A DNA stretch of 64,000 bases from Christensenellaceae bacterium. Lineage in GTDB: Bacteria > Bacillota > Clostridia > Christensenellales > UMGS416. Shown piece after piece: positions 24,660 through 34,644 of the stretch; position 1 is the stretch's first letter; each line of letters begins with the position of its first letter. The notes beneath the pieces are model-generated. The model was not told the DNA's origin. It did not search any database and worked only from the letters and a program-made list of their open reading frames with translations. Location of the stretch: NCBI GenBank assembly GCA_963677605.2, contig CAXXDX010000002.1, positions 266,057 to 330,056 of the forward strand. Direction: 5' to 3'. The position numbers and the translations under genes are program-made.

Positions 24660-25292
24660 TCATATCTTTTTCACTACAAAATACTGTGAATTATAATTAT
24701 CTTCACATAGCTCAATTGTTCCGGATTTTTCAATTATTAAACCGGCATCTTTTATAAACTCCGAAAACTTCTCCACTGTTCTGAAAGAGAAAAACCTCTC
24801 TCCCCTGCCACCATAGTCTTTAAAGCCTTCATTGCTTTTTTGTTTGTCGCCATACTGACACAAAATAATCATCCCGTTCAGCTTTAATACTCTTTTAAGC
24901 TCATATATAACAGAAGGCATCTCAGCGTTTGGTATATGCAAAAGACAGTTCATCGCATAGATTACATCAAATGAATTATCCGCAAATGTCATGTCGGAAA
25001 AATCCATAACATGTGCATCAATCCCCTTATCCCAACACCTTTTAACATGCTCTTGCGATAAATCCACAGCGGTGACATCAAGACCGTTTTCCATAAAAAA
25101 CAAACTGTCCTGCCCGGTTCCCGCGCCTATTTCAAGAATGCTTTTTAAACCTCTATCTTTAATTATCGAAAGAAAGTCATTCCGCAAGTCAATTTTCCAA
25201 TCGCTTTTTATCTTAGCATCTCTTTCAACCACATTCTTATTATAATAATCTTTCAGCTGAGCTTTATTATTGTCCATTATTGAACCTTTCAT
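24660..25292 (-). CDS. class I SAM-dependent methyltransferase
   Basis: 210-aa ORF with motif I ILEIGAGTGQDSLFF and the acidic post-I residue in VTAVDLS. Confidence 0.85.
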   Translation of the reverse strand: MKGSIMDNNKAQLKDYYNKNVVERDAKIKSDWKIDLRNDFLSIIKDRGLKSILEIGAGTGQDSLFFMENGLDVTAVDLSQEHVKRCWDKGIDAHVMDFSDMTFADNSFDVIYAMNCLLHIPNAEMPSVIYELKRVLKLNGMIILCQYGDKQKSNEGFKDYGGRGERFFSFRTVEKFSEFIKDAGLIIEKSGTIELCEDNYNSQYFVVKKI

Positions 25293-25467
25293 GAAGATGA
25301 GTATTAATAATATACCATATTTTTCATTAAAAAGTTTAGTTCATATTAATCATATAATACTATTAATAAAAACCTGTTTAGAATGTTTTTAAAGCACTTA
25401 GATAACAAACCCCTGCGGACATGTGCCTGTATTGATCTTTTATTTTTATCTAACAATTTAGTTAACC

Positions 25468-25497
25468 AATAAAAATCCGCGGACATGTGCCGCGGAT
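25468..25497 (-). terminator. Rho-independent terminator ending the sulfur-relay operon
   Basis: The minus strand reads ATCCGCGG-CACATGT-CCGCGGAT followed by TTTTTATTGG. Confidence 0.65.
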
Positions 25498-25637
25498 TTC
25501 AATGATTAATTCTTTTGTCCGCTCGCAAAGCGCAAAACATAAAAATGCATAAGTGAATTTATTCACGAATTTTTTGTGTTTTGTAAGACTCTCGCCCGAA
25601 TAATTTTTCGGGCGAAAGCAAAGCTTTGCTTTGCGTA

Positions 25638-27224
25638 TTAGTCTGTTACTACAGGATAGCCTTCTGCAATCCAGCCCACAGCCATTCCAAAGTGGAGTGA
25701 TACTGCGTCATGGCCCATCATGCGAAGAACTGCTGTTGTCTGGCCTGCTGTCTGGCCTGAATAGCATGCAACGATAAGCTTGCCTGACGGAAGCTCGCTG
25801 AAGTCCATGTCAGCACCGAAAGGTATGTTAATTGCGCCTGCGATGTGGCCTGCAGCAAAGTCTTCTGCTTTTCTTATGTCAACTACTGTAGCTTCGCCTG
25901 CGTCAACTGCTGCCTGAGCGCCGTCCCAACCGATTTTGAAGTTTGCGTTTTCTTCCATGCCAACTGCCACGAAGTAATCTTCAACTGCTTTAAGAAGCAC
26001 TGCGTCAAAGCTTACGCCTGCGTCTGAAATCTCAACTGCTTCAGTGTCAACATAAGCTTCATAGCCTTCAACAGCCATTGCGCCTTTGTTGTAACCTGAT
26101 TTTACAGAGTAAGCATCGATGCCAAGCATGCGCATAAGAGCTGTTGCCTGTCCTGCTGTCTGTCCTGAATAGCAGTATACATAAACAGGTTCGTCTGTCG
26201 GAAGCATTGAAACCTTTTCTGCAAGGTCTGAGCCCCATGAAGCGAGAACTGCGCCTTTGATGTGGCCTTCGTCATATACGTCCTGCTGGCGGATAGAAAC
26301 TATGTTAAGCTCTTCGCCTGTGTCCATTTTCTCAAAGAGTGCTTCCCATGAAATCATAGGATTTGCGAACTCGCCTGCAAAGTATGCGTTAGCTGCAGCT
26401 GTTTTCACATATGTTGTCCAGCCGCCCATGCCGCTTTTAAGTGATACAGCGTCATAGCCGAGTGCGCGAAGAACTGCAACAGTCTGTCCTGCTGTCTGTC
26501 CTGAATAGCAAGCAACGATGATCTTTTTGCCTTCGAAGTCTGCAAATTTTTCCTGCATGCCTTCGCCGAAAGGTACGTTTACAGCGCCGTCGATGTGTGC
26601 TGCGTTGTAATCATCAGCCTTGCGGATGTCCATCACTGTAAGGTCGCCTGCTGCGATAAGCGGTGCAGCTGCGTCCGAAGCCATGATGTTGTTTGCGTTG
26701 TCAGCTACTGTGTTGAAGTACTCTTCAACAAACTCAAGTGCTTCTTTGTTAAATTTAGCTTTTGCGTCAGGAAGCTCGTTAGCTGCTGTTTCCACATAAG
26801 CTTCAAAGCCTTCAGTCTTTGATGCGCCGAGGTTATATCCTGATTTAACAGAATATGCTTCGATGCCGAGTATATTAAGGAGGGCAACAGTCTGTCCTGC
26901 TGTCTGTCCTGAATAGCAGTATACATAAACAGGTTCGTCTGTCGGAAGCATTGAAACCTTTTCTGCGAGGTCTGTGCCCCATGCTGCAAGGTATGCGCCT
27001 TTGATGTGGCCTGCTTCATAAACGTCGCTCTGACGGATGCTCAGAATGAACGGCTCGTCGCCGGCGTCGATTTTAGCAAAGAGGTCGTCCCAAGTGATGA
27101 TGCGGCTGCCTGGGTACTCCGCAAAATAGTCAGTGGCCGCGCTTTCAAGCGCATTTCCTCCGGAACATGCTGTCACAGCAAACACCATGATAGCAGCCAT
27201 AAGGATTACTAATAGTTTTTTCAT
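25638..27224 (-). CDS. lipoprotein with four tandem rhodanese domains
   Basis: Signal peptide with lipobox MKKLLVILMAAIMVFAVTAC. The active-site loop CYSGQTAGQ occurs four times. Halves 1-2 and 3-4 are clearly duplicated (PTDEPVYVYCYSGQTAGQ...SVKSGYN appears twice). Confidence 0.88.
   Translation of the reverse strand: MKKLLVILMAAIMVFAVTACSGGNALESAATDYFAEYPGSRIITWDDLFAKIDAGDEPFILSIRQSDVYEAGHIKGAYLAAWGTDLAEKVSMLPTDEPVYVYCYSGQTAGQTVALLNILGIEAYSVKSGYNLGASKTEGFEAYVETAANELPDAKAKFNKEALEFVEEYFNTVADNANNIMASDAAAPLIAAGDLTVMDIRKADDYNAAHIDGAVNVPFGEGMQEKFADFEGKKIIVACYSGQTAGQTVAVLRALGYDAVSLKSGMGGWTTYVKTAAANAYFAGEFANPMISWEALFEKMDTGEELNIVSIRQQDVYDEGHIKGAVLASWGSDLAEKVSMLPTDEPVYVYCYSGQTAGQATALMRMLGIDAYSVKSGYNKGAMAVEGYEAYVDTEAVEISDAGVSFDAVLLKAVEDYFVAVGMEENANFKIGWDGAQAAVDAGEATVVDIRKAEDFAAGHIAGAINIPFGADMDFSELPSGKLIVACYSGQTAGQTTAVLRMMGHDAVSLHFGMAVGWIAEGYPVVTD
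26148..26222. repeat. intragenic direct repeat, copy 1 (75 nt identical to 26892-26966)
   Basis: I read the exact string ctgtcctgctgtctgtcctgaatagcagtatacataaacaggttcgtctgtcggaagcattgaaaccttttctgc at both positions. The offset is 744 nt, or 248 codons. Confidence 0.95.
26892..26966. repeat. intragenic direct repeat, copy 2
   Basis: Identical 75-nt string. The flanks are similar but diverged. A second conserved pair lies at about 25738 and 26482 with the same 744-nt offset. Confidence 0.95.
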
Positions 27225-27239
27225 CTTTTGTCCTTTCTG

Positions 27240-28133
27240 TTACGAAGCGTCTTGCCTCGTGGGTGTGATATCTTCTGCCGGCGGCTGCGGGTTTTCAACA
27301 TCCTCATATTCCAACCAAGCCCCGTCATATATCCTTACATCTTTGTATCCTGCATCCTTGAGCGCCGCATAGCTCTGGGCAGCCCTCACCGATGTTTTGC
27401 AGAATAATATTATTTTAGTTTCAGGCGTAATGCCTTCCGCTATATATGTGCTCTGTATGTCGCGCGGAGTTTTATACTCTCCGTTTGCATACATGTTCCA
27501 CTTATATTCCTTGTGACACGAGCCGGGGATTGTTCCCGCGTAGTACTCTTCGTCGCTGCGTGTGTCTATAATCACCGTGTTTTCATCCGGCATGTTGATT
27601 ATCGACTTCACATAGTCCAGCGTCACAATAAGTGATTTCTGATAGTCGCCCGCAACATACTCAGCCTCGGATGTTTCCACCTTGGCAGAGTTCATTGCGA
27701 CATCCGCTTCCTTGAGAGCTTCAAATCCGCCGCTTATGACGCGAACATTGAAGTTTGAATACATGTTAAGCGTCCACTGCACACGTGCGGCCTGCATATT
27801 ACTTGCATTGTCATAAACCAGGATCTCGTCGCTTGCGGTGATTCCTGCAGCGCTCATGACCGCCTCTACCTGCGCGGTGTCCGGAAGCATGTTTGCATAC
27901 GGCTCACCGACTGTAAGCGCACCCATAGGAATGTTTACAGCTCCTACAACATGGTTTAAGCCATAGTCTTCAGCGCTTCTTACATCCACGACAGTTATGC
28001 CGTCTTCGATAAGCGCTGCCGCTTCTTTTGGTGTCACAATGTATTCGCCGGTTTCAGCAAAATCAAAGTTTGCACATGCCGAAAACGAAAGAATCATCAA
28101 TGCAGTCAGAATTATTAGCATTCTCTTTTTCAC
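27240..28133 (-). CDS. lipoprotein with two rhodanese domains (inactive N-terminal plus catalytic C-terminal), thiosulfate/3-mercaptopyruvate sulfurtransferase architecture
   Basis: Lipobox LMILSFSAC. The first domain has Asp at the active-site position (VYDNASNMQAAR). The second has FCKTSVRAAQ. I place the start at the GTG at 28131-28133, preceded by AAGGAG with 7-nt spacing. The longer track ORF overlaps the upstream gene. Confidence 0.82.
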   Translation of the reverse strand: MKKRMLIILTALMILSFSACANFDFAETGEYIVTPKEAAALIEDGITVVDVRSAEDYGLNHVVGAVNIPMGALTVGEPYANMLPDTAQVEAVMSAAGITASDEILVYDNASNMQAARVQWTLNMYSNFNVRVISGGFEALKEADVAMNSAKVETSEAEYVAGDYQKSLIVTLDYVKSIINMPDENTVIIDTRSDEEYYAGTIPGSCHKEYKWNMYANGEYKTPRDIQSTYIAEGITPETKIILFCKTSVRAAQSYAALKDAGYKDVRIYDGAWLEYEDVENPQPPAEDITPTRQDAS

Positions 28134-28137
28134 GGTA

Positions 28138-29370
28138 CTACTCCTTTGAAGCCGCAATTGCAGCAATTATGTCTTCCTTGCTAAGCTCATTTTCAGACAA
28201 AGTCTCATATATCTTGCCGTCTTTTATGATTACAACCGCCGGGCAGTCCTCGCAGCCTAAACGCTCAGCCAAGCCCTTTGATTTATAAGTATCAACCTTA
28301 TGGCAGCAGTGATTGTCATACATTTCTTCGATTTCCTCAATAACTGTAAGGAACTCGCGCTGTGTATGGTCTACTGCGTCATAAACGTATGCAATGCCGT
28401 CGCCCATCATTATCTGATGCTCGAATATTTCGCTTTCTGCAATATATTTTTCAGCCATAACACCGGCTGTCGCCGCATCGCCTACGCATGTTGCAACCTG
28501 GCGAAGGAAACGCTCGCGTACATCGCCTGCTGCAAATACACCTGAGATGTTTGTGCGCATTTCTTCATCTGTTAAAACATAACCGCGGTCTGTCATCTTA
28601 ACGATGTCTTTATAAATAGCTGTGTTAGGAACAAATCCGATAAACAGGAAGCATGTCGCGCAGTCAATTCTCTCACTTTCGCCTGTCTTGAGATTTTTGA
28701 GCACAACGCCTTCAAGCTCTTCGCCGCCGTAGTATTCATCTACAACAGTATTCCACTTAAATTCCATTTTAGGATTGGCAAGCGCTGCAGCTTTAGCTAT
28801 CTCGTTGCAGTCCATAACACCTTCATCATGAAGAACGGAAACTGTAACTTTGCTTGCAAACTTTGTAAGGAACATGCCTTCTTCTATAGCGGCATCTCCT
28901 GAGCCTATTACAACAACTTCCTTGCCTGTGTTGGCAGCAGCGTCGCATGTGGCGCAGAATGCAATTCCCTTGCCTATATACTGCTCTTCGCTGTCGATTC
29001 CGAGAACTCTCGGTTTTGAACCGTTTGCAATGATAACAGCTTTTGCTTCATATCTGTTTCTGAATGTTTCAAGGATTTTGATATCTCCCGAGAAATCCAC
29101 AGTTTTAACGTTTGTAAGTTTAAAATCCACTCCGAACTTTTTCGCCTGATCTTTAAAAAGGTTCATGAGGTCTATTCCAGAAATTCCTTCAGGGAATCCC
29201 GGATAGTTTTCTATATCATTTGTGTTTGTAGCGATGCCGCCGACCAAAGCCTGCTCTATAATAAGAGTTTTAAGCTTTGCTCTTCCGCAGTATATGCCTG
29301 CTGTAAGCCCTGAAGCTCCGCCGCCTACGATAACGACATCATATTGTTCAACTTTTTTCTCTCTAGCCAT
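28138..29370 (-). CDS. thioredoxin-reductase-like FAD flavoprotein fused to a C-terminal thioredoxin-fold-like domain
   Basis: VVIVGGGASGLTAG, redox-active CATCD, VVVIGSGDAAIEEG and FAAGDV define a low-Mr TrxR core of about 310 aa. About 100 extra C-terminal residues contain HCCH and CEDCPAVVIIKDGK. Confidence 0.8.
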   Translation of the reverse strand: MAREKKVEQYDVVIVGGGASGLTAGIYCGRAKLKTLIIEQALVGGIATNTNDIENYPGFPEGISGIDLMNLFKDQAKKFGVDFKLTNVKTVDFSGDIKILETFRNRYEAKAVIIANGSKPRVLGIDSEEQYIGKGIAFCATCDAAANTGKEVVVIGSGDAAIEEGMFLTKFASKVTVSVLHDEGVMDCNEIAKAAALANPKMEFKWNTVVDEYYGGEELEGVVLKNLKTGESERIDCATCFLFIGFVPNTAIYKDIVKMTDRGYVLTDEEMRTNISGVFAAGDVRERFLRQVATCVGDAATAGVMAEKYIAESEIFEHQIMMGDGIAYVYDAVDHTQREFLTVIEEIEEMYDNHCCHKVDTYKSKGLAERLGCEDCPAVVIIKDGKIYETLSENELSKEDIIAAIAASKE

Positions 29371-29381
29371 AATATTATCCT

Positions 29382-29939
29382 TTACATAAAGTACTTAACC
29401 AGCAGTTTGCTGCCGATCACTGCGCCGCCGAACATAAACAGGGCAAAAACCCAGCCTGAAAGCGACAGTGAAGCGATTCCCGAAAACAGTGCGCCGATGT
29501 TACAGCCTGCTGCAATGCGTGCACCGTATCCCATAAGAAGTCCGCCCAGTGTTGCGGCAGCAACCTGTTTCCATGACTTAATTTTCTTAAATTTGAAACC
29601 TGAAGCCATAAGCACAGCAAAAAGTGCTCCGAATATAATTCCTATGTTTCTCCATGTGGGTGCATGGCTTAAAAAGCCTGCTTCAAGCGTGGCCTGAGCA
29701 CCCGGGGAAGAAAAGTAATACCATTTGTCAACCGAGCCGCCCACAGCTTCAAAGAGCCAGGCTCCCCAGTTTGCAAATATTCCCGAAACGCCCCACGGAT
29801 TGCCTGTTGTAGCAAATGTAACTATCTGAAAAACAGAAAGCAGAACCGCTCCGGCAACATATGGCAACGCATTTTTAAACCACATCTTGTAGAATTCATT
29901 TTGTTTTATATTGTCAAAAAATTTCTTCAAGTTTCTCAC
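29382..29939 (-). CDS. YeeE/YedE family sulfur-transport membrane protein, C-terminal-half equivalent
   Basis: 185-aa hydrophobic ORF with the GARIAAGCNIGALFSG cysteine loop typical of the family. Confidence 0.75.
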   Translation of the reverse strand: MRNLKKFFDNIKQNEFYKMWFKNALPYVAGAVLLSVFQIVTFATTGNPWGVSGIFANWGAWLFEAVGGSVDKWYYFSSPGAQATLEAGFLSHAPTWRNIGIIFGALFAVLMASGFKFKKIKSWKQVAAATLGGLLMGYGARIAAGCNIGALFSGIASLSLSGWVFALFMFGGAVIGSKLLVKYFM

Positions 29940-29964
29940 CTCAATTAAGTTTTAATACTTTAAG

Positions 29965-30192
29965 TTATGCTTTTTCTATGATGCATTCCCATTCGCCGTC
30001 GTCAACTTCTTCAAGCTCAACTTCGTGACCTTGTTTGCGTGCCCATTCAGGAACGTTTTTCATTGCGCAGCTATGGTCGATCTGAACGATAAGCACATCG
30101 CCTGATTCAAGTTCTTCAAGTGCTTTTTCTGCTTTGATAAGTGGTACAGGGCAAGCCTCGCCCAAACAATCCAATACGACTTCTTTACTCAT
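29965..30192 (-). CDS. TusA/YeeD/SirA-like sulfur carrier protein
   Basis: 75 aa starting at MSKEVVLDCLGEACPVPLIKAEKAL, with the CPxP motif. A GGAGGAAACAAAA RBS precedes this ATG. The longer track ORF (to 30261) overlaps the upstream gene. Confidence 0.88.
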   Translation of the reverse strand: MSKEVVLDCLGEACPVPLIKAEKALEELESGDVLIVQIDHSCAMKNVPEWARKQGHEVELEEVDDGEWECIIEKA

Positions 30193-30233
30193 TTTTGTTT
30201 CCTCCGAAAAATTATTATTTAAAAAGGATTGCC

Positions 30234-30941
30234 TTAATCCTCTTTTTTGCGGTTTTCCCATTTATGTGCGATTACGTATATTACTGCGATGATAAGAAGG
30301 TTGCACAAGAGTCCTCCGAACCACCCGAATGCTGTTGAATTAAATAATTTTGTAAATACATCAGGAAGGAATATTCTCTTTCCGGTTACTATGAAGTTGC
30401 GATACCACCATCCATAGTCATGAGCTCCCCACAGCGAGCCTACAACGAAAAAGAAAAGTGATATAAGCTGCATCCAGAATCCTTCGCCTATTCTCATCAG
30501 TGTGCCCGATGCGCAGCCGCCTGCAATAACCATACCGATACCAAACATAAATGCGCCGATACCTGTTGCAATTGAAACCGGAGCCACATAGCTTTGTCCC
30601 GGAATAGCCTGTCCGTTTACAAATGCTCCGTACTTTATTGCTGTAAACGCAATTGAAGTTATGGCAAATGCTATAAGAACCGCTCTTGTTACGGTAGTTG
30701 ATCCTGTAAGGTAGGGATCGCGCATAGAAGCTGTGAAGCAAAAGCGTGCGCGCTGCAGGATAAAACCAAAAGCTAAACCTGTCATCCAATAGAGCCCGAG
30801 GTTTTCACCTCTTAACGTCAAAAGAACGCCTATTACAACGATGATTACGATAAGCCCTAATGCTATAGGTATCTGATTCATCCTTTTTTTGCGTTTTCTG
30901 CTTGATGCTCTGGAAGAAGTTCTGATTGTGCTTTCTGACAT
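30234..30941 (-). CDS. YeeE/YedE family sulfur-transport membrane protein, N-terminal-half equivalent
   Basis: 235-aa hydrophobic ORF with the QRARFCFTAS and IAGGCASGTLMR cysteine loops. Confidence 0.75.
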   Translation of the reverse strand: MSESTIRTSSRASSRKRKKRMNQIPIALGLIVIIVVIGVLLTLRGENLGLYWMTGLAFGFILQRARFCFTASMRDPYLTGSTTVTRAVLIAFAITSIAFTAIKYGAFVNGQAIPGQSYVAPVSIATGIGAFMFGIGMVIAGGCASGTLMRIGEGFWMQLISLFFFVVGSLWGAHDYGWWYRNFIVTGKRIFLPDVFTKLFNSTAFGWFGGLLCNLLIIAVIYVIAHKWENRKKED

Positions 30942-31048
30942 GATTACACCTCTTTGTTAGTTTGTTAATTATTTAACATATTGACCTGTTTTATTTTATC
31001 ATACTTTGTTAAAAATCTGTCAATCCTTTTTCTTATGCAGTATTAGAT

Positions 31049-31077
31049 TTGTTTATATCAAACTTTGGTGCTATAAT
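31049..31077 (+). promoter_or_regulatory. putative promoter of the LysR gene
   Basis: TTGTTT (31049-31054), a 17-nt spacer, then TATAAT (31072-31077) preceded by TGC (extended -10). It lies 43 nt upstream of the ATG. Confidence 0.45.
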
Positions 31078-31119
31078 ATCCATTAATATCAAAGCAATAT
31101 CAGGGATTTAGACATTAAA

Positions 31120-32016
31120 ATGAATATAGAATCTTTAAAATATTTCTATATGATTGCCAAGGCGGGAAACATAAGTTCCGTCGCAAAAAGCGTGCACCTT
31201 TCTCAGTCTGCACTATCCCAACAGATTCAGCGCCTTGAAACAGATTTTGAAAAAAAGCTTCTGATACGCTCCAATAAAGGCGTTCAGCTCACACCTGACG
31301 GTAAGATAGTTTACAAATTTGCAAGCAACATCCTTCGCACATACGAACACATGATGGAAGAGCTTGAAAGCGAATCAAGGAAAAACATAATTATAAAGAT
31401 TGAAGCTCCGTCGTCTCTTGCAGACTATGCGCTTCCCTGCACGATGATAAAGGCCAATGATAAGTATCAATTGCATAAGTACGAGCTTTCCAGCAATCCG
31501 TCCTATGAAATACTTCAGAATGTTTCAAACAACATTTGCGATGTAGGATTTTCATACATGAAAACTCCGAACGGATATGACGGAGTGCTGTGCCAAAGAG
31601 CCGGCATAAACCGTATAATTCTTGCTGCACCCAACAATTCCGATTATCCAGATGCAATAAGCCTGTCAGAGCTTTCAGACATATGCCTTATAACACTTAC
31701 CGGCAAAACCGATATTAACGAAATCATCTTCGATAAGCTTGAAAAACTGGGAGTGCCCAAAAACGAGCTGAACTGCAACCTCCGCGTGGAAGGCATTGTT
31801 GGAGCTAAAATGATGATAAACAGGGGTTACGGCATGGCTTTCCTTCCTTATATTTCGGTTAAGGAAGAGCTTTATAAAAAGCAGTTTAAGGAAGTAAAAG
31901 TAGAAGGTCTTGATATGGATCTTGACATCTATCTTTTATATAAACAAATCCACACAGAACATGTGGAGGCATTTTTGGAATGGTTTAAACAAAATGGAGA
32001 AGCAAGCTTCTGCTGA
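31120..32016 (+). CDS. LysR family transcriptional regulator
   Basis: 298-aa ORF with the N-terminal HTH LKYFYMIAKAGNISSVAKSVHLSQSALSQQIQRLE and a LysR substrate-binding domain. It is divergent from the YeeE operon. Confidence 0.92.
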   Translation: MNIESLKYFYMIAKAGNISSVAKSVHLSQSALSQQIQRLETDFEKKLLIRSNKGVQLTPDGKIVYKFASNILRTYEHMMEELESESRKNIIIKIEAPSSLADYALPCTMIKANDKYQLHKYELSSNPSYEILQNVSNNICDVGFSYMKTPNGYDGVLCQRAGINRIILAAPNNSDYPDAISLSELSDICLITLTGKTDINEIIFDKLEKLGVPKNELNCNLRVEGIVGAKMMINRGYGMAFLPYISVKEELYKKQFKEVKVEGLDMDLDIYLLYKQIHTEHVEAFLEWFKQNGEASFC

Positions 32017-32021
32017 TACAT

Positions 32022-32252
32022 TTATCTTACTGTAAATGTTACTTCCCACACGCCGTTCATAACTTCTTCTATATTAACGTCGTGTTTTTTGTCCAAATAC
32101 TTGTTTTTTATAGCTTCAATCGTACAGCTGTGGTCCACCACAATCATAAACGATTCCCCGCTTTTTGTGTGGGCAAGCTCCTGTTCTATTTTTAAGATCG
32201 GAACAGGACAAATATCTCCGAAACAGTCGATTAGTTTTATATCTTTTTTCAT
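32022..32252 (-). CDS. TusA/YeeD/SirA-like sulfur carrier protein (second copy)
   Basis: 76-aa ORF: MKKDIKLIDCFGDICPVPILKIEQEL, with the CPxP motif. It starts 3 nt after the stop of the upstream permease gene. Confidence 0.88.
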   Translation of the reverse strand: MKKDIKLIDCFGDICPVPILKIEQELAHTKSGESFMIVVDHSCTIEAIKNKYLDKKHDVNIEEVMNGVWEVTFTVR

Positions 32253-32255
32253 TTT

Positions 32256-33668
32256 CTACATCATAATGGACACATATCCTGCAACAAGCAGAACTGCGAA
32301 AGTTATTGCAACACCCATTACTCCCTTCTTTAGCATAAAATCAGTGTCAAGGCCGTATCCCACAGGGATGGCTCTTATTGAAGTCGGCAGCAGGAATGCG
32401 CAGTTGCACGCCGCAGCCGTAATATAAACATATTTAAGCGGCACATCGCTTATAACAGAGACAATACCGATTACAAGAGGCACTGCAACAGCGACGGCTG
32501 CCGTGTTGCTTGATGCATTGGATAAAAACATTGAAAAAGCGATTATTATTAGCAGTATCGGCAGGGTTTTGTTCAAGTCAATAAGCGACACAGCTTGTGA
32601 AACTCCTGAAAGCGCGCCTGTTGATATAAGCATATTGCCTATTGCAAGCCCGCCTGAAAACAGAATCATAAGCCCCCAGTTGATGTTCTTTTCCGCCTGC
32701 TTCCACGTGATGAGCCGTTCGTTTTTTTCGCCGTTTATAACAAAAGCTACAACGCCGAACAGCATAAACGCGAAAAAAGGCTTAAACTCCGGCAGTATGC
32801 TTGCATAAAGCGGCCTCGCAAAAGACAAAGCAACCGGAACAACAAACAGCACAAGCGATATTACCTGAGATCTTTTCATTTTTCCCGCCAGCTTATACTG
32901 CTCTTTAAAATACTTGCTGCTTCCCGGCATATTTTTTGTTTTAAACCTAAGAAGCAGAATATATGCAACAATGCCCAACGATAAAAGCGCAAGATACGGA
33001 AGCATCTTTGCAGTCCATTCAATGAACATGAACTCTCTTCCCGTAAAGCTTTCAATGTGAGTGATAGCGACAAGGTTCATCGCGCCGCCCAAAGGCGTAC
33101 CAAAGCCCCCAAGCCCCGCGCCCCATGCGACCATCATAAGTATCATCTTGAGAAGATAGTCGCTTTCAGCCTCGTTCTCGCCACCTGCATACTGCATCAT
33201 AGCATATGCAATGGGACATAACGCTGCGACAACCACGGCGTTCGGAAGAACCGAGGACAGCACAACCGACAGCATAAACCACACGACAAGCTGCCACTTT
33301 ACCGAGGTTCCTATGACGCTCAGTGCTTTTAGCGCAATCCTCTTATCGAGGCCGGTATTTTTCCATGTTATTGTAAGCACGTTTGCACCAAGCAAGAGAA
33401 CAACTATCTGAGATGCGTAGTTTTTTAATACATCAGCCATTGGCATTATGGAAAACAGGCTGTTTATGACAATGGGCAAAAGCGCTGTCACCGCTATATG
33501 AAAAGGCCTCGTTATCCACCAGTAGACCATCAGAGCAAGCGTTGAAACGGCAATTCTTGCTTCAAATGAAAAGATGCTTTTAGGCATAACAAAAGCGACA
33601 GCAGCAAATAATATTGCTCCCGCTGCCAGATGAATAAACCGCTTTTTTGCATCCTTTGTCATTTTCAT
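32256..33668 (-). CDS. DASS/SLC13-type (ArsB/NhaD superfamily) anion:cation symporter
   Basis: 470-aa polytopic ORF. Hairpin-tip-like motifs VLPNAVVVAAL and LSNASSNTAAVAV resemble the paired SNT motifs of DASS transporters. Confidence 0.7.
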   Translation of the reverse strand: MKMTKDAKKRFIHLAAGAILFAAVAFVMPKSIFSFEARIAVSTLALMVYWWITRPFHIAVTALLPIVINSLFSIMPMADVLKNYASQIVVLLLGANVLTITWKNTGLDKRIALKALSVIGTSVKWQLVVWFMLSVVLSSVLPNAVVVAALCPIAYAMMQYAGGENEAESDYLLKMILMMVAWGAGLGGFGTPLGGAMNLVAITHIESFTGREFMFIEWTAKMLPYLALLSLGIVAYILLLRFKTKNMPGSSKYFKEQYKLAGKMKRSQVISLVLFVVPVALSFARPLYASILPEFKPFFAFMLFGVVAFVINGEKNERLITWKQAEKNINWGLMILFSGGLAIGNMLISTGALSGVSQAVSLIDLNKTLPILLIIIAFSMFLSNASSNTAAVAVAVPLVIGIVSVISDVPLKYVYITAAACNCAFLLPTSIRAIPVGYGLDTDFMLKKGVMGVAITFAVLLVAGYVSIMM

Positions 33669-33760
33669 TGTCCTATGATTTTACCTACATTGCTGCGTTT
33701 TGTAAACCGCAAATTATCATTTATTCGCAAAATATGCACTCTTGCTTTGCAATAAACCGT

Positions 33761-33792
33761 AAAAAAGCAAAAGCGCACGGATAACCATGCGC
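33761..33792 (-). terminator. Rho-independent terminator after the sugar ABC operon
   Basis: The minus strand reads GCGCATGG-TTAT-CCGTGCGC followed by TTTTGCTTTTTT. Confidence 0.65.
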
Positions 33793-33816
33793 CTTGCCTT
33801 ATGATAGTTGGAAGAA

Positions 33817-34644
33817 CTATTGTTTTACTGCTCCAGATGTTATTCCCTGAATAAAGTACTTCTGTCCCAGCAGATATATTAGAAGAACCGGCAGAGTAGT
33901 TAAGACTATGTCTGCAAAGATAAGATTCCATTTGCTTGTCGTACGTCCGAAGAACTGATAGACAGATATCGTCATTGGATATAGCTTTGTGCTGCTTGTA
34001 AGATACAAAGGCACAAGGAAGTTGCTCCACGTTCCCATAAACTGCAGTATAAAGCATGTTGCGATGATGGGCTTGAGCAACGGCATGATTATATAGAAAA
34101 ACAATCTCACCGAATCCGCACCGTCGATTATCGCAGCCTCATCCATCTCCTGCGGCACTGAACTTACAAAGTTTCTTATAACAAAGACGCAAAACGGTAT
34201 CATCCCGCTCGTAAATGTTACAATTACACCTAGCCGTGAATCTGTCAGGTTAAACAGCTGAAACATTCTGACAAGTGTAATAAAGTTTACAGGCAAAAAC
34301 AGGCCGAACAAAATAAAGTAGTAAATAAAGTTATTTATCTTAGTCTTCTTTCGGCTTAAAACAAAAGCACACATCGCGCACAGCACGACTCCCAGCGTCG
34401 TACTTGTAAGCGAATACACAAGGCTGTTTGTAAAGCCCTGAACAAGCTTGCCTTTTTCTATGACTTCTGCATAGTTTTCAAAATGCCATACTTCGGGAAA
34501 TGCCAGAGACATTCTCGCAGCTTCGTACTTGTCTTTAAACGAGTTTATAACAACCATGTAAAATGGTATTACAACTATAACGCACAGCAGAATGCATATT
34601 ATCTGTTTTATCAATGTATAAATATGTTTCTTTTTGATAACCAT
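33817..34644 (-). CDS. carbohydrate ABC transporter permease (MalG/LplC-like)
   Basis: 275-aa ORF with 6 predicted helices and the EAA-like loop EAAIIDGADSVRLFFYIIMPLLKP. Confidence 0.9.
   Translation of the reverse strand: MVIKKKHIYTLIKQIICILLCVIVVIPFYMVVINSFKDKYEAARMSLAFPEVWHFENYAEVIEKGKLVQGFTNSLVYSLTSTTLGVVLCAMCAFVLSRKKTKINNFIYYFILFGLFLPVNFITLVRMFQLFNLTDSRLGVIVTFTSGMIPFCVFVIRNFVSSVPQEMDEAAIIDGADSVRLFFYIIMPLLKPIIATCFILQFMGTWSNFLVPLYLTSSTKLYPMTISVYQFFGRTTSKWNLIFADIVLTTLPVLLIYLLGQKYFIQGITSGAVKQ

Follow-up and report, generated by a model that had tools for sequence, protein, structure and literature searches.

A thioredoxin reductase paralogue with a charge-inverted NADPH site and a fused thioredoxin-like domain, a candidate reductase for the sulfur carrier of a split YeeE/TusA operon

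In YeeE/YeeD (TsuA/TsuB) systems, a YeeE protein with conserved cysteine loops is accompanied by an adjacently encoded carrier with a CPxP motif, YeeD. Both cysteines of E. coli YeeD are functionally required. In S. thermophila YeeD, the CPxP cysteine bears persulfide, perthiosulfonate and thiosulfonate, and the protein releases H2S from thiosulfate, a reaction that required beta-mercaptoethanol in vitro; the cellular acceptor proteins of YeeD remain to be identified, according to the same authors (PMC11073785). Thiosulfate induces yeeE 42-fold in T. maritima, where an NAD(P)H flavoprotein of the cytoplasm reduces both thiosulfate and S0 (PMC9431562). The stretch of 64,000 nucleotides analysed here (the window; positions 266,057 to 330,056 of contig CAXXDX010000002.1, assembly GCA_963677605.2, from a Christensenellaceae bacterium) contains a YeeE/TusA operon that also encodes a thioredoxin reductase (TrxR)-like flavoprotein with a fused C-terminal thioredoxin (Trx)-like domain. 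We put at roughly 55 % the probability that this protein is a specialised TrxR paralogue, a FAD/CATC disulfide reductase that no longer acts on thioredoxin but on the sulfur carrier belonging to an importer of the YeeE (TsuA) type. It is probably a dedicated, NADH-linked reductase that either releases sulfide from the YeeD-type carrier or re-reduces it.

The operon departs from described YeeE/YeeD pairs in that its YeeE is split in two, the carrier gene lies between the halves and the carrier has three cysteines. It differs from T. maritima YeeE and NSR in having a reductase of the TrxR type in the same operon, whereas NSR is of the CoADR type. Another flavoprotein, the CoADR-rhodanese Npsr of Shewanella loihica, is reportedly an NADH-dependent persulfide reductase that releases H2S. 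Like the window protein, Npsr joins a flavoprotein disulfide reductase to a C-terminal sulfur-handling or docking domain, but it belongs to another flavoprotein subfamily and has an active rhodanese with a catalytic cysteine, whereas the domain fused here is without a conserved cysteine.

With low-Mr TrxB (2q7v and the E. coli enzyme 1F6M), the window protein shares the two-domain FAD/pyridine-nucleotide fold and the GxGxxG, CATC-D, GxGxxAxE, GKG and GD motifs. Unlike TrxB, its family has H-D-E-G-x-M-D and a 2-residue insertion, AA in place of FF, C188, C240 and an extra C-terminal domain, and its members are always found in a YeeE/TusA operon, in addition to a true TrxB. Loss of the 2'-phosphate arginine motif is shared with D. 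vulgaris TR3, T. maritima TR and TaTR, which were compared by description (PMC5627308, PMC6262447), and TR3 is further alike in that the pyrophosphate motif is kept, the FF docking residues are lost and the partner is dedicated (PMC5627308). These three enzymes nevertheless have thioredoxin-type partners, and they have neither a fused Trx-like domain nor a YeeE/TusA context. The order of domains, TrxR followed by a C-terminal thioredoxin fold, is that of NTRC and of TIGR03143 fusions. NTRC of plants and cyanobacteria, however, retains an NADPH motif and a working CGPC site, and its linker is long and flexible, whereas the window protein reads VDHTQ and has a linker of ~4 residues. FFTR-type enzymes, which occur in anaerobes and cyanobacteria, also have a TrxR fold without HRRxxxR, but they are without the GxGxxA loop and the Trx-like domain and are distant (E about 1e-24).

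Six minus-strand genes make up the operon, and the TrxR-like gene comes fourth. Its product consists of a TrxR core (residues 1-~320), a ~4-residue linker and the Trx-like domain (323-410). Pfam Pyr_redox_2 matches residues 10-297 (E 3.9e-45), and there is a sub-threshold Pfam Thioredoxin match at residues 343-406. In the full-length AlphaFold 2 (AF2) model (pLDDT 80.5), the core resembles TrxR structures, the best being 5mh4 in the FR conformation (root-mean-square deviation (rmsd) 3.0 Å, TM 0.86). Sequences were compared by HMMER alignment to PDB TrxR-type sequences, and conservation was assessed over 81 family sequences. The FAD GxGxxG, the redox CxxC with its following Asp and the GD motif (FAAGD) are all present, as are all the strings that the original prediction had listed for the 410-aa open reading frame (ORF): GGGASG, CATC, GSGDAAIEEG, FAAGDV, HCCH and CEDC. 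HDEG starts at residue 181, FAAGDV at 279, CEDC at 373 and CPAVV at 376. The gene and its parts are located as follows.

28138..29370, minus strand: gene for the TrxR-like flavoprotein, a 410-aa ORF
29308..29325, minus strand: FAD-binding GxGxxG, read as GGGASG, residues 16-21
28930..28974, minus strand: GKG...FCATCDAAAN, residues 133-147, with the redox-active CATC at 139
28876..28905, minus strand: pyrophosphate-binding loop GSGDAAIEEG, residues 156-165, essentially invariant
28801..28830, minus strand: H-D-E-G-V-M-D-C-N-E, residues 181-190, in place of HRRxxxRAxK
28651..28653, minus strand: Cys240 in TCFLFIG of the pyridine-nucleotide domain, Cys in 81/81
28141..28404, minus strand: C-terminal thioredoxin-fold domain without CxxC, residues 323-410
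28357..28374, minus strand: V-D-H-T-Q-R, residues 333-338, at the position of Trx W-C-G-P-C-K, no Cys
28300..28311, minus strand: HCCH, residues 354-357, at the start of β3 (DSSP strand 355-360), lineage-specific
28240..28293, minus strand: D-T-Y-K-S...R...C-E-D-C-P, residues 360-377, with invariant D360, Y362, K363 and P377 and a lineage-specific CEDC

The remaining genes of the operon encode the two halves of YeeE, the carrier and two rhodaneses.

30234..30941, minus strand: operon gene 1, YeeE/YedE N-terminal half (Pfam Sulf_transp 1-154/310)
29965..30192, minus strand: operon gene 2, TusA/YeeD-type carrier, 75 aa from MSKEVV (Pfam TusA E 7.8e-25)
29382..29939, minus strand: operon gene 3, YeeE/YedE C-terminal half (Pfam Sulf_transp 163-310/310)
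27240..28133, minus strand: operon gene 5, two-domain rhodanese lipoprotein, likely GTG start 28133 (VKKRMLIILTALMILSFSAC)
25638..27224, minus strand: last operon gene, four-domain rhodanese lipoprotein

A scan of one genome per species yielded at least 551 relatives, and synteny was determined for the best 80 (59-94% identity to the query). Among these 80 loci, the C-terminal half of YeeE was immediately upstream in 80/80 (median gap 28 nt), and the N-terminal half together with a CPxP TusA/YeeD-family carrier was upstream in 74/74 loci with enough flank. The suggestion made from the sequence alone that the enzyme acts on TusA is thus borne out as far as operon linkage goes. One TusA copy lay between the YeeE halves in 57 loci, two in 16 and three in 1; tandem duplicates were among loci L004, L014, L019-L022, L024, L026, L031, L032, L044 and L053, with further such loci at L056, L058-L060, L064 and L071, and the triplicate was that of Wukongibacter (L021). 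A divergent LysR gene was present in 57/68 loci. Hosts were Christensenellaceae, many Clostridia, Erysipelotrichaceae, Halanaerobiales, Spirochaetales and Anaerolineales, and the cultured ones included Lacrimispora, Fusibacter, Marasmitruncus, Hominibacterium, Wukongibacter and Lachnotalea. Rhodaneses were found at only 35/80 loci, and both rhodaneses of the window operon have lipoprotein signal peptides, which places them outside the cell. This makes rhodanese, the other substrate that had been proposed, unlikely. No gene is conserved downstream of the TrxR-like gene: a downstream partner (ferredoxin, thioredoxin or similar) was sought in 10 rhodanese-free loci and none was detected.

The carriers of these loci have three cysteines, compared with one in typical TusA and two in E. 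coli YeeD. In both TusA proteins of the locus the pattern is D-C-L-G-x-x-C-P-V-P...D-H-S-C, each cysteine being conserved in at least 90% (106 and 74 copies from 80 loci), and the carrier between the YeeE halves of the window reads DC-LGEAC-PVP...DHSC. By sequence, these three-cysteine proteins look like redox-active carriers. A multi-cysteine carrier that closes a disulfide after expelling sulfide would be chemically suited to the CATC dithiol of a TrxR-type enzyme. The TsuA and TsuB NCBIfam models match only below their cut-offs.

The substrate side of the core differs from that of the housekeeping enzyme. CATC and the following Asp are invariant across the family. After CATCD, canonical enzymes read G-F/A-F-F/Y (GFFY in 2q7v, GAFF in 7aaw, 5uwy and the TrxB of the same genome), and these are presumably the Phe residues that dock thioredoxin in the E. 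coli TrxR-Trx complex 1F6M. At this FF position the family invariably has A-A, and the next residue is A or S. The docking G[R/K]G motif is GKG in the window protein and D-K-G in 57/81 members, so the full thioredoxin-docking set of G[R/K]G and FF residues is not in place. Phe residues after CATCD dock thioredoxin, and their loss goes with non-canonical partners, that of TR3 being strictly dedicated (PMC5627308). Because the FF docking pair is lost, ordinary thioredoxin is an unlikely substrate.

Profile scores and genome distribution also separate the protein from TrxB. Against TIGR01292 (EC 1.8.1.9) it scored 318.3 bits, below the cut-off of 343.45, while the real TrxB of the genome scored 365.2; against TIGR03143 (AhpF homologue) it scored 327.6 against a cut-off of 687.65 bits, and the match was confined to model positions 4-311 of 555, the TrxR part, without the double Trx-like module at the C-terminus of the model. 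Matches in 41 genomes of the same order were bimodal, with at least 740 bits in 5 genomes (full-length) and at most 321 bits for canonical TrxB, and 5/5 of the carriers also held a canonical TrxB. The bimodal scores and the coexistence with TrxB indicate an accessory, patchily distributed part of a four-gene module. The prediction of a dedicated reductase distinct from the housekeeping TrxB agrees with this, a canonical TrxB with HRRDKLR being encoded elsewhere in the genome.

The pyridine-nucleotide site was compared with that of D. radiodurans TrxR (2q7v), to which the protein is 48% identical (E 4e-89). In the alignment, VTVSVLHDEGVMDCNEIA lies opposite VT--VIHRRDTLRANKVA and VSVLHDEGVMDC opposite V--IHRRDTLRA, so that V-L-H-D-E-G-V-M-D stands against V-I-H-R-R-D-T-L-R, preceded by a 2-residue insertion (VS). 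The VxxxHRRDxxRA motif is therefore absent, and the alignment leaves no arginine hidden by a shift of register, in agreement with the claim that the NADPH 2'-phosphate arginines are missing. The canonical TrxB of the same genome reads VHRRDKLRA. At the positions that we take to be R176, R177 and R181 in E. coli TrxR numbering, and at the Lys three after R181, the window protein has D, E, D and E, and the family has D/E, E/N/T, D and E. H181, D187, C188 and N189 are each conserved in 81/81 sequences and E190 in 80/81, residue 182 is acidic in 81/81 (D in 72, E in 9), and block 177-192 has 90% column identity. Since the replacement residues are invariant or near-invariant, the loss of HRRxxxR reads as a conserved charge inversion and not as decay. 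C188, in the former 2'-phosphate pocket, and C240 are extra cysteines, each in 81/81; canonical TrxRs have Ala and Leu/Val there.

Preference for an unphosphorylated ribose is classically set by an acidic residue where β2 ends, and the acidic residue 182 fits NADH. NADPH is very unlikely to be the donor, and on these motifs the enzyme probably uses NADH. The pyrophosphate motif GGGxxAxE is retained (GSGDAAIE), and its loop, block 154-165, is the best-conserved block of the protein, with 97% column identity compared with 81% for the whole core. For this reason NADH is the likelier donor than ferredoxin. In FFTRs both GxGxxA and HRRxxxR are absent (PMC10880999), and TRi is likewise without both; the pyrophosphate motif is intact in TR3, which uses NADH, and degenerate in TRi, which is independent of NAD(P)H (PMC5627308). 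TaTR, the T. acidophilum TrxR, has no HRRxxxR; initially described as independent of pyridine nucleotides, it was later shown to use NADH (PMC6262447). Here only HRRxxxR is gone, and the protein does not group with FFTRs: matches to FFTR 6gna (E 1.5e-24), DDOR 5n0j (E 5.7e-23) and DTR 5j60 (E 5e-48) are far weaker than that to NADPH-TrxR (4e-89). The analogy with FFTRs drawn in the original prediction is weak on both counts, and its leaning toward a pyridine-nucleotide-independent enzyme is probably wrong.

The C-terminal domain was modelled alone with AF2 from a 60-sequence alignment, giving a pLDDT of 87.5 and the DSSP order E-H-E-H-E-E-H (β-α-β-α-β-β-α). Foldseek comparison with E. coli, S. 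aureus and spinach thioredoxins gave TM 0.78-0.83 and an rmsd of ~2 Å. The family profile of the domain matched PDB thioredoxins over the full length without gaps (E 3e-9, natural-type sequences), and PF00085 was matched by 58/60 members (best E 1.4e-13), although the domain of the window protein itself scored 20.5 bits, below the 23.5-bit gathering score. Given the fold match, the gap-free profile match and the PF00085 matches, the domain is a genuine thioredoxin homologue, as had been suspected from the ~100 extra residues. A search for the domain in other architectures (word-based, residues 318-410) returned the family itself only, and all nine top matches inspected from a hidden Markov model search of 1.84 billion representatives were fragments or one full-length member of the family.

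The register of the domain was taken from the gap-free profile alignment to LPBCA thioredoxin. Trx WCGPC-K corresponds to V333-D334-H335-T336-Q337-R338, P377 is the cis-Pro equivalent (81/81), and C373-E-D-C376-P377 corresponds to Trx I72-R73-G74-I75-P76, in the loop flanking the old active site. The placing of CEDC directly before the cis-Pro was therefore correct, whereas HCCH had been wrongly assigned to the WCGPC position: it corresponds to Trx L53-A56 at the start of β3, and WCGPC aligns with VDHTQ. HCCH and CEDC are restricted to the nearest relatives. Seventeen of the 81 members (21%) are without any cysteine in the domain and the others have 1-10 (mean 2.8 per ~95 residues), recurrently at 337 (Trx C35), 355/356, 372-376 and 378 and in some tails, e.g. 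CECSCSTCGCSC. As a property of the family, the proposed tethered, non-canonical thiol domain does not hold up, domain cysteines varying by lineage. The conserved residues that are not cysteines (A332, R338, D360, Y362, K363, S364, G366, R370 and P377) would surround the former active-site face on the Trx fold. The last TrxR helix spans 292-320 and the first Trx strand begins at 325, and a linker of ~4 residues probably fixes the domain in place. This dead Trx domain is kept under purifying selection.

A cysteine is kept or regained at the old Trx site in some members, namely L042 (CRDC), L052, L041/L065/L072 and ~15 loci with 'DPKCRE', and many members have a single cysteine at the Trx C35 position, often with another right after the cis-Pro (P-C-V-V). 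Cysteines at the old site suggest an ancestral, active TrxR-Trx fusion. Members of the Peptostreptococcaceae type (L035, L058, L059 and L064) have a cysteine-rich C-terminal tail, e.g. ...CKVLESCECSCSTCGCSC, and other tails read CLCQK, EECNC or CIDCH. Such tails recall the redox or metal arms at the C-termini of MerA and high-Mr TrxR.

The host genome (4.08 Mb, 93.5% complete) was examined for sulfur and selenium genes. It has a single YeeE, the split one of this operon, and CysK; Sat, AsrC, a NIR_SIR-domain protein (siroheme sulfite reductase) and a SelD above cut-off were not found in it. A lack of sulfate activation, considered as a description of this genome, is wrong, as CysD and CysNC exist. 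After CysD and a CysN-CysC fusion come a sulfotransferase and a sulfatase (contig C7:247000-263000, L101), and a pirin and a protein with a molybdopterin-oxidoreductase domain are encoded close by. This position beside sulfotransferase and sulfatase, and the lack of a NIR_SIR protein, suggest that 3'-phosphoadenosine 5'-phosphosulfate is made for sulfation rather than for sulfate assimilation. The host apparently cannot reduce sulfite and needs sulfur at the level of sulfide, a need that a route from the sulfane sulfur of thiosulfate or polysulfide through H2S to CysK fits. With rhodaneses on the surface, the sulfite, which is of no use to the host, could stay outside the cell. Among 46 cassette genomes, SelD was present in 28 and AsrC in 9, which indicates that the cassette has no obligate partner in selenium use or in thiosulfate respiration of the Asr type; dissimilatory thiosulfate respiration with Asr was accordingly rejected, AsrC being absent from the host also. 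Most SelD genes of the cassette genomes contain one in-frame TGA (L021, L023, L025-L027, L029-L033 and others), which suggests a selenocysteine-containing SelD.

In the proposed mechanism, thiosulfate or sulfane sulfur would enter through the two-piece YeeE channel; before this step, rhodanese lipoproteins on the surface of this organism may strip sulfur outside the cell. The CPxP cysteine of the three-cysteine TusA/YeeD would catch the sulfur as persulfide or thiosulfonate. The reduced CATC dithiol would then free it as H2S or, alternatively, re-reduce the carrier disulfide formed when a second cysteine expels H2S. The flavin would be re-reduced by NADH, not NADPH, and the sulfide would pass to CysK. 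The fused Trx domain may be the fossil of an ancestral TrxR-Trx fusion whose CxxC has been lost, serving now as a cysteine-independent docking or positioning surface, and the HCCH and CEDC cysteines of the window protein would be a lineage-specific addition. Several points weigh against this mechanism. Substrate and donor are deduced from synteny and motif logic, and the 80 loci are the best-scoring of at least 551, so that distant members might break the synteny. The invariant C188 and C240 could mean that the pocket binds something other than NADH, and with so short a linker the Trx-like domain may be merely structural. Finally, if thiosulfate enters whole, the host has no evident means of sulfite disposal.

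Other explanations share parts of this evidence. A ferredoxin- or flavodoxin-dependent, pyridine-nucleotide-independent reductase of the FFTR kind, acting in the same TusA/YeeE pathway, would account for the absence of HRRxxxR, for a new role of the site as marked by the invariant C188 and the remodelled pocket, and for strictly anaerobic hosts rich in ferredoxin, FFTRs being found in Clostridia (PMC10880999). We nevertheless regard it as unlikely: FFTR, TRi and DFTR lose the pyrophosphate motif (PMC10880999, PMC5627308), which is the best-conserved block here, 6gna, 5n0j and 5j60 are matched far more weakly than NADPH-TrxRs, the new pocket is strongly acidic while ferredoxins are acidic proteins too, and the cassette has no conserved gene for a ferredoxin or flavodoxin. 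A related question is whether the lineage-specific His and Cys residues (H335, H354-C355-C356-H357, C373 and C376) bind a metal or Fe-S cluster or make up a new redox disulfide; either would make the Trx-like domain an active electron or sulfur relay, which would be compatible with a carrier reductase. C373 and C376 correspond to Trx I72 and I75 in the substrate-binding loop beside the old active site, cysteines recur around that site in many lineages at 337, 372-376 and 378, their mean is 2.8 per ~95 residues and some members have CECSCSxCxC tails. Yet 17/81 members have no cysteine in the domain, positions differ between clades, C355 and C356 lie within β3 and away from C373 and C376 on the fold topology, and no Fe-S or Zn family was matched, so that we consider such a relay quite unlikely.

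An improbable alternative is that the cassette serves selenium, through YedE/YedF-type import of selenite or selenotrisulfide that the TrxR-like enzyme reduces to selenide. TrxRs are known to reduce selenite, and SelD occurs in 28/46 cassette genomes, but it is absent from the host, its three nearest relatives and 18/46 cassette genomes and is never adjacent to the cassette. Both YeeE halves match NCBIfam selen_YedE_FdhT (97 bits) and TusA matches YedF (46 bits), far below the respective cut-offs of 350 and 110 bits, and the TsuA/TsuB thiosulfate-transporter models match as well. Least credible by a wide measure is an ordinary NADPH thioredoxin reductase that lies in a sulfur operon by chance. 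It would agree with the 48% identity to D. radiodurans TrxR and with JGI labels, but acidic residues stand in place of the three 2'-phosphate arginines, the FF docking pair is gone, the score is below the TIGR01292 cut-off, a canonical TrxB is encoded elsewhere and the synteny is strict. As to labels, the NCBI name is only 'FAD-dependent oxidoreductase', and some homologues are called 'thioredoxin reductase (NADPH)' by JGI.

The junctions of the operon genes show translational coupling. Between the stop of the YeeE C-terminal half and the ATG of the TrxR-like gene are 11 nt with an AGGA ribosome-binding site, and the AAGGAG ribosome-binding site of the rhodanese consists of the final two sense codons in the TrxR-like gene. 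The longest ORF of the two-domain rhodanese begins with TTG at 28166, within the TrxR-like gene (region 28074-28166, minus strand); GTG 28133, 4 nt past the TrxR-like stop, is the likelier start and yields the lipoprotein signal MKKRMLIILTALMILSFSAC. An Rfam scan of 25000-34500 (E<=1) gave no match and thus no S-box or T-box clue, and no RNA-seq run containing the locus was found. The surroundings of the operon contain the following features.

25472-25500: terminator-like hairpin after the final operon gene
31120..32016, plus strand: LysR-type regulator, divergent
32022-32252, minus strand: second TusA, beside LysR

A DASS/CitMHS-type permease gene is followed 3 nt on by this second TusA (32022-33668, minus strand), and the pair beside LysR is kept in the closest relatives (L001, L004-L013). 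The permease may be an anion (sulfite or thiosulfate) transporter working with a TusA.

No paper joining YeeE, TusA and thioredoxin reductase was found in the searchable literature, nor was any description of the family or its YeeE/YeeD linkage. We offer tentatively, as somewhat less than an even chance, that a TrxR paralogue family, spread over at least 500 species in the Bacillota, Spirochaetota and Chloroflexota, has swapped thioredoxin for a multi-cysteine TusA/YeeD. Split YeeE, YeeD and the TrxR-like enzyme would then be a self-contained 'import and reduce' machine, in which the enzyme would be both the first reductase dedicated to the persulfide or disulfide of TusA and the missing physiological reductant of YeeD-type carriers, the Trx fossil would be a docking adaptor and the NADPH pocket would have been rebuilt as a D-C-N site. 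The protein is a case of TrxR re-targeting in which docking residues are lost, the charge of the NADPH pocket is inverted and a dead Trx domain is retained, and it illustrates that a missing HRRxxxR motif is by itself poor ground for calling an enzyme ferredoxin-dependent. It provides a candidate partner for YeeD that is part of the same operon at all the related loci examined, where the 2024 work on YeeE/YeeD names none (PMC11073785), and makes the question of that partner directly testable with three purified proteins. In gut and sediment anaerobes without sulfite reductase, like this host, the cassette may be a main route from thiosulfate or polysulfide to cysteine.

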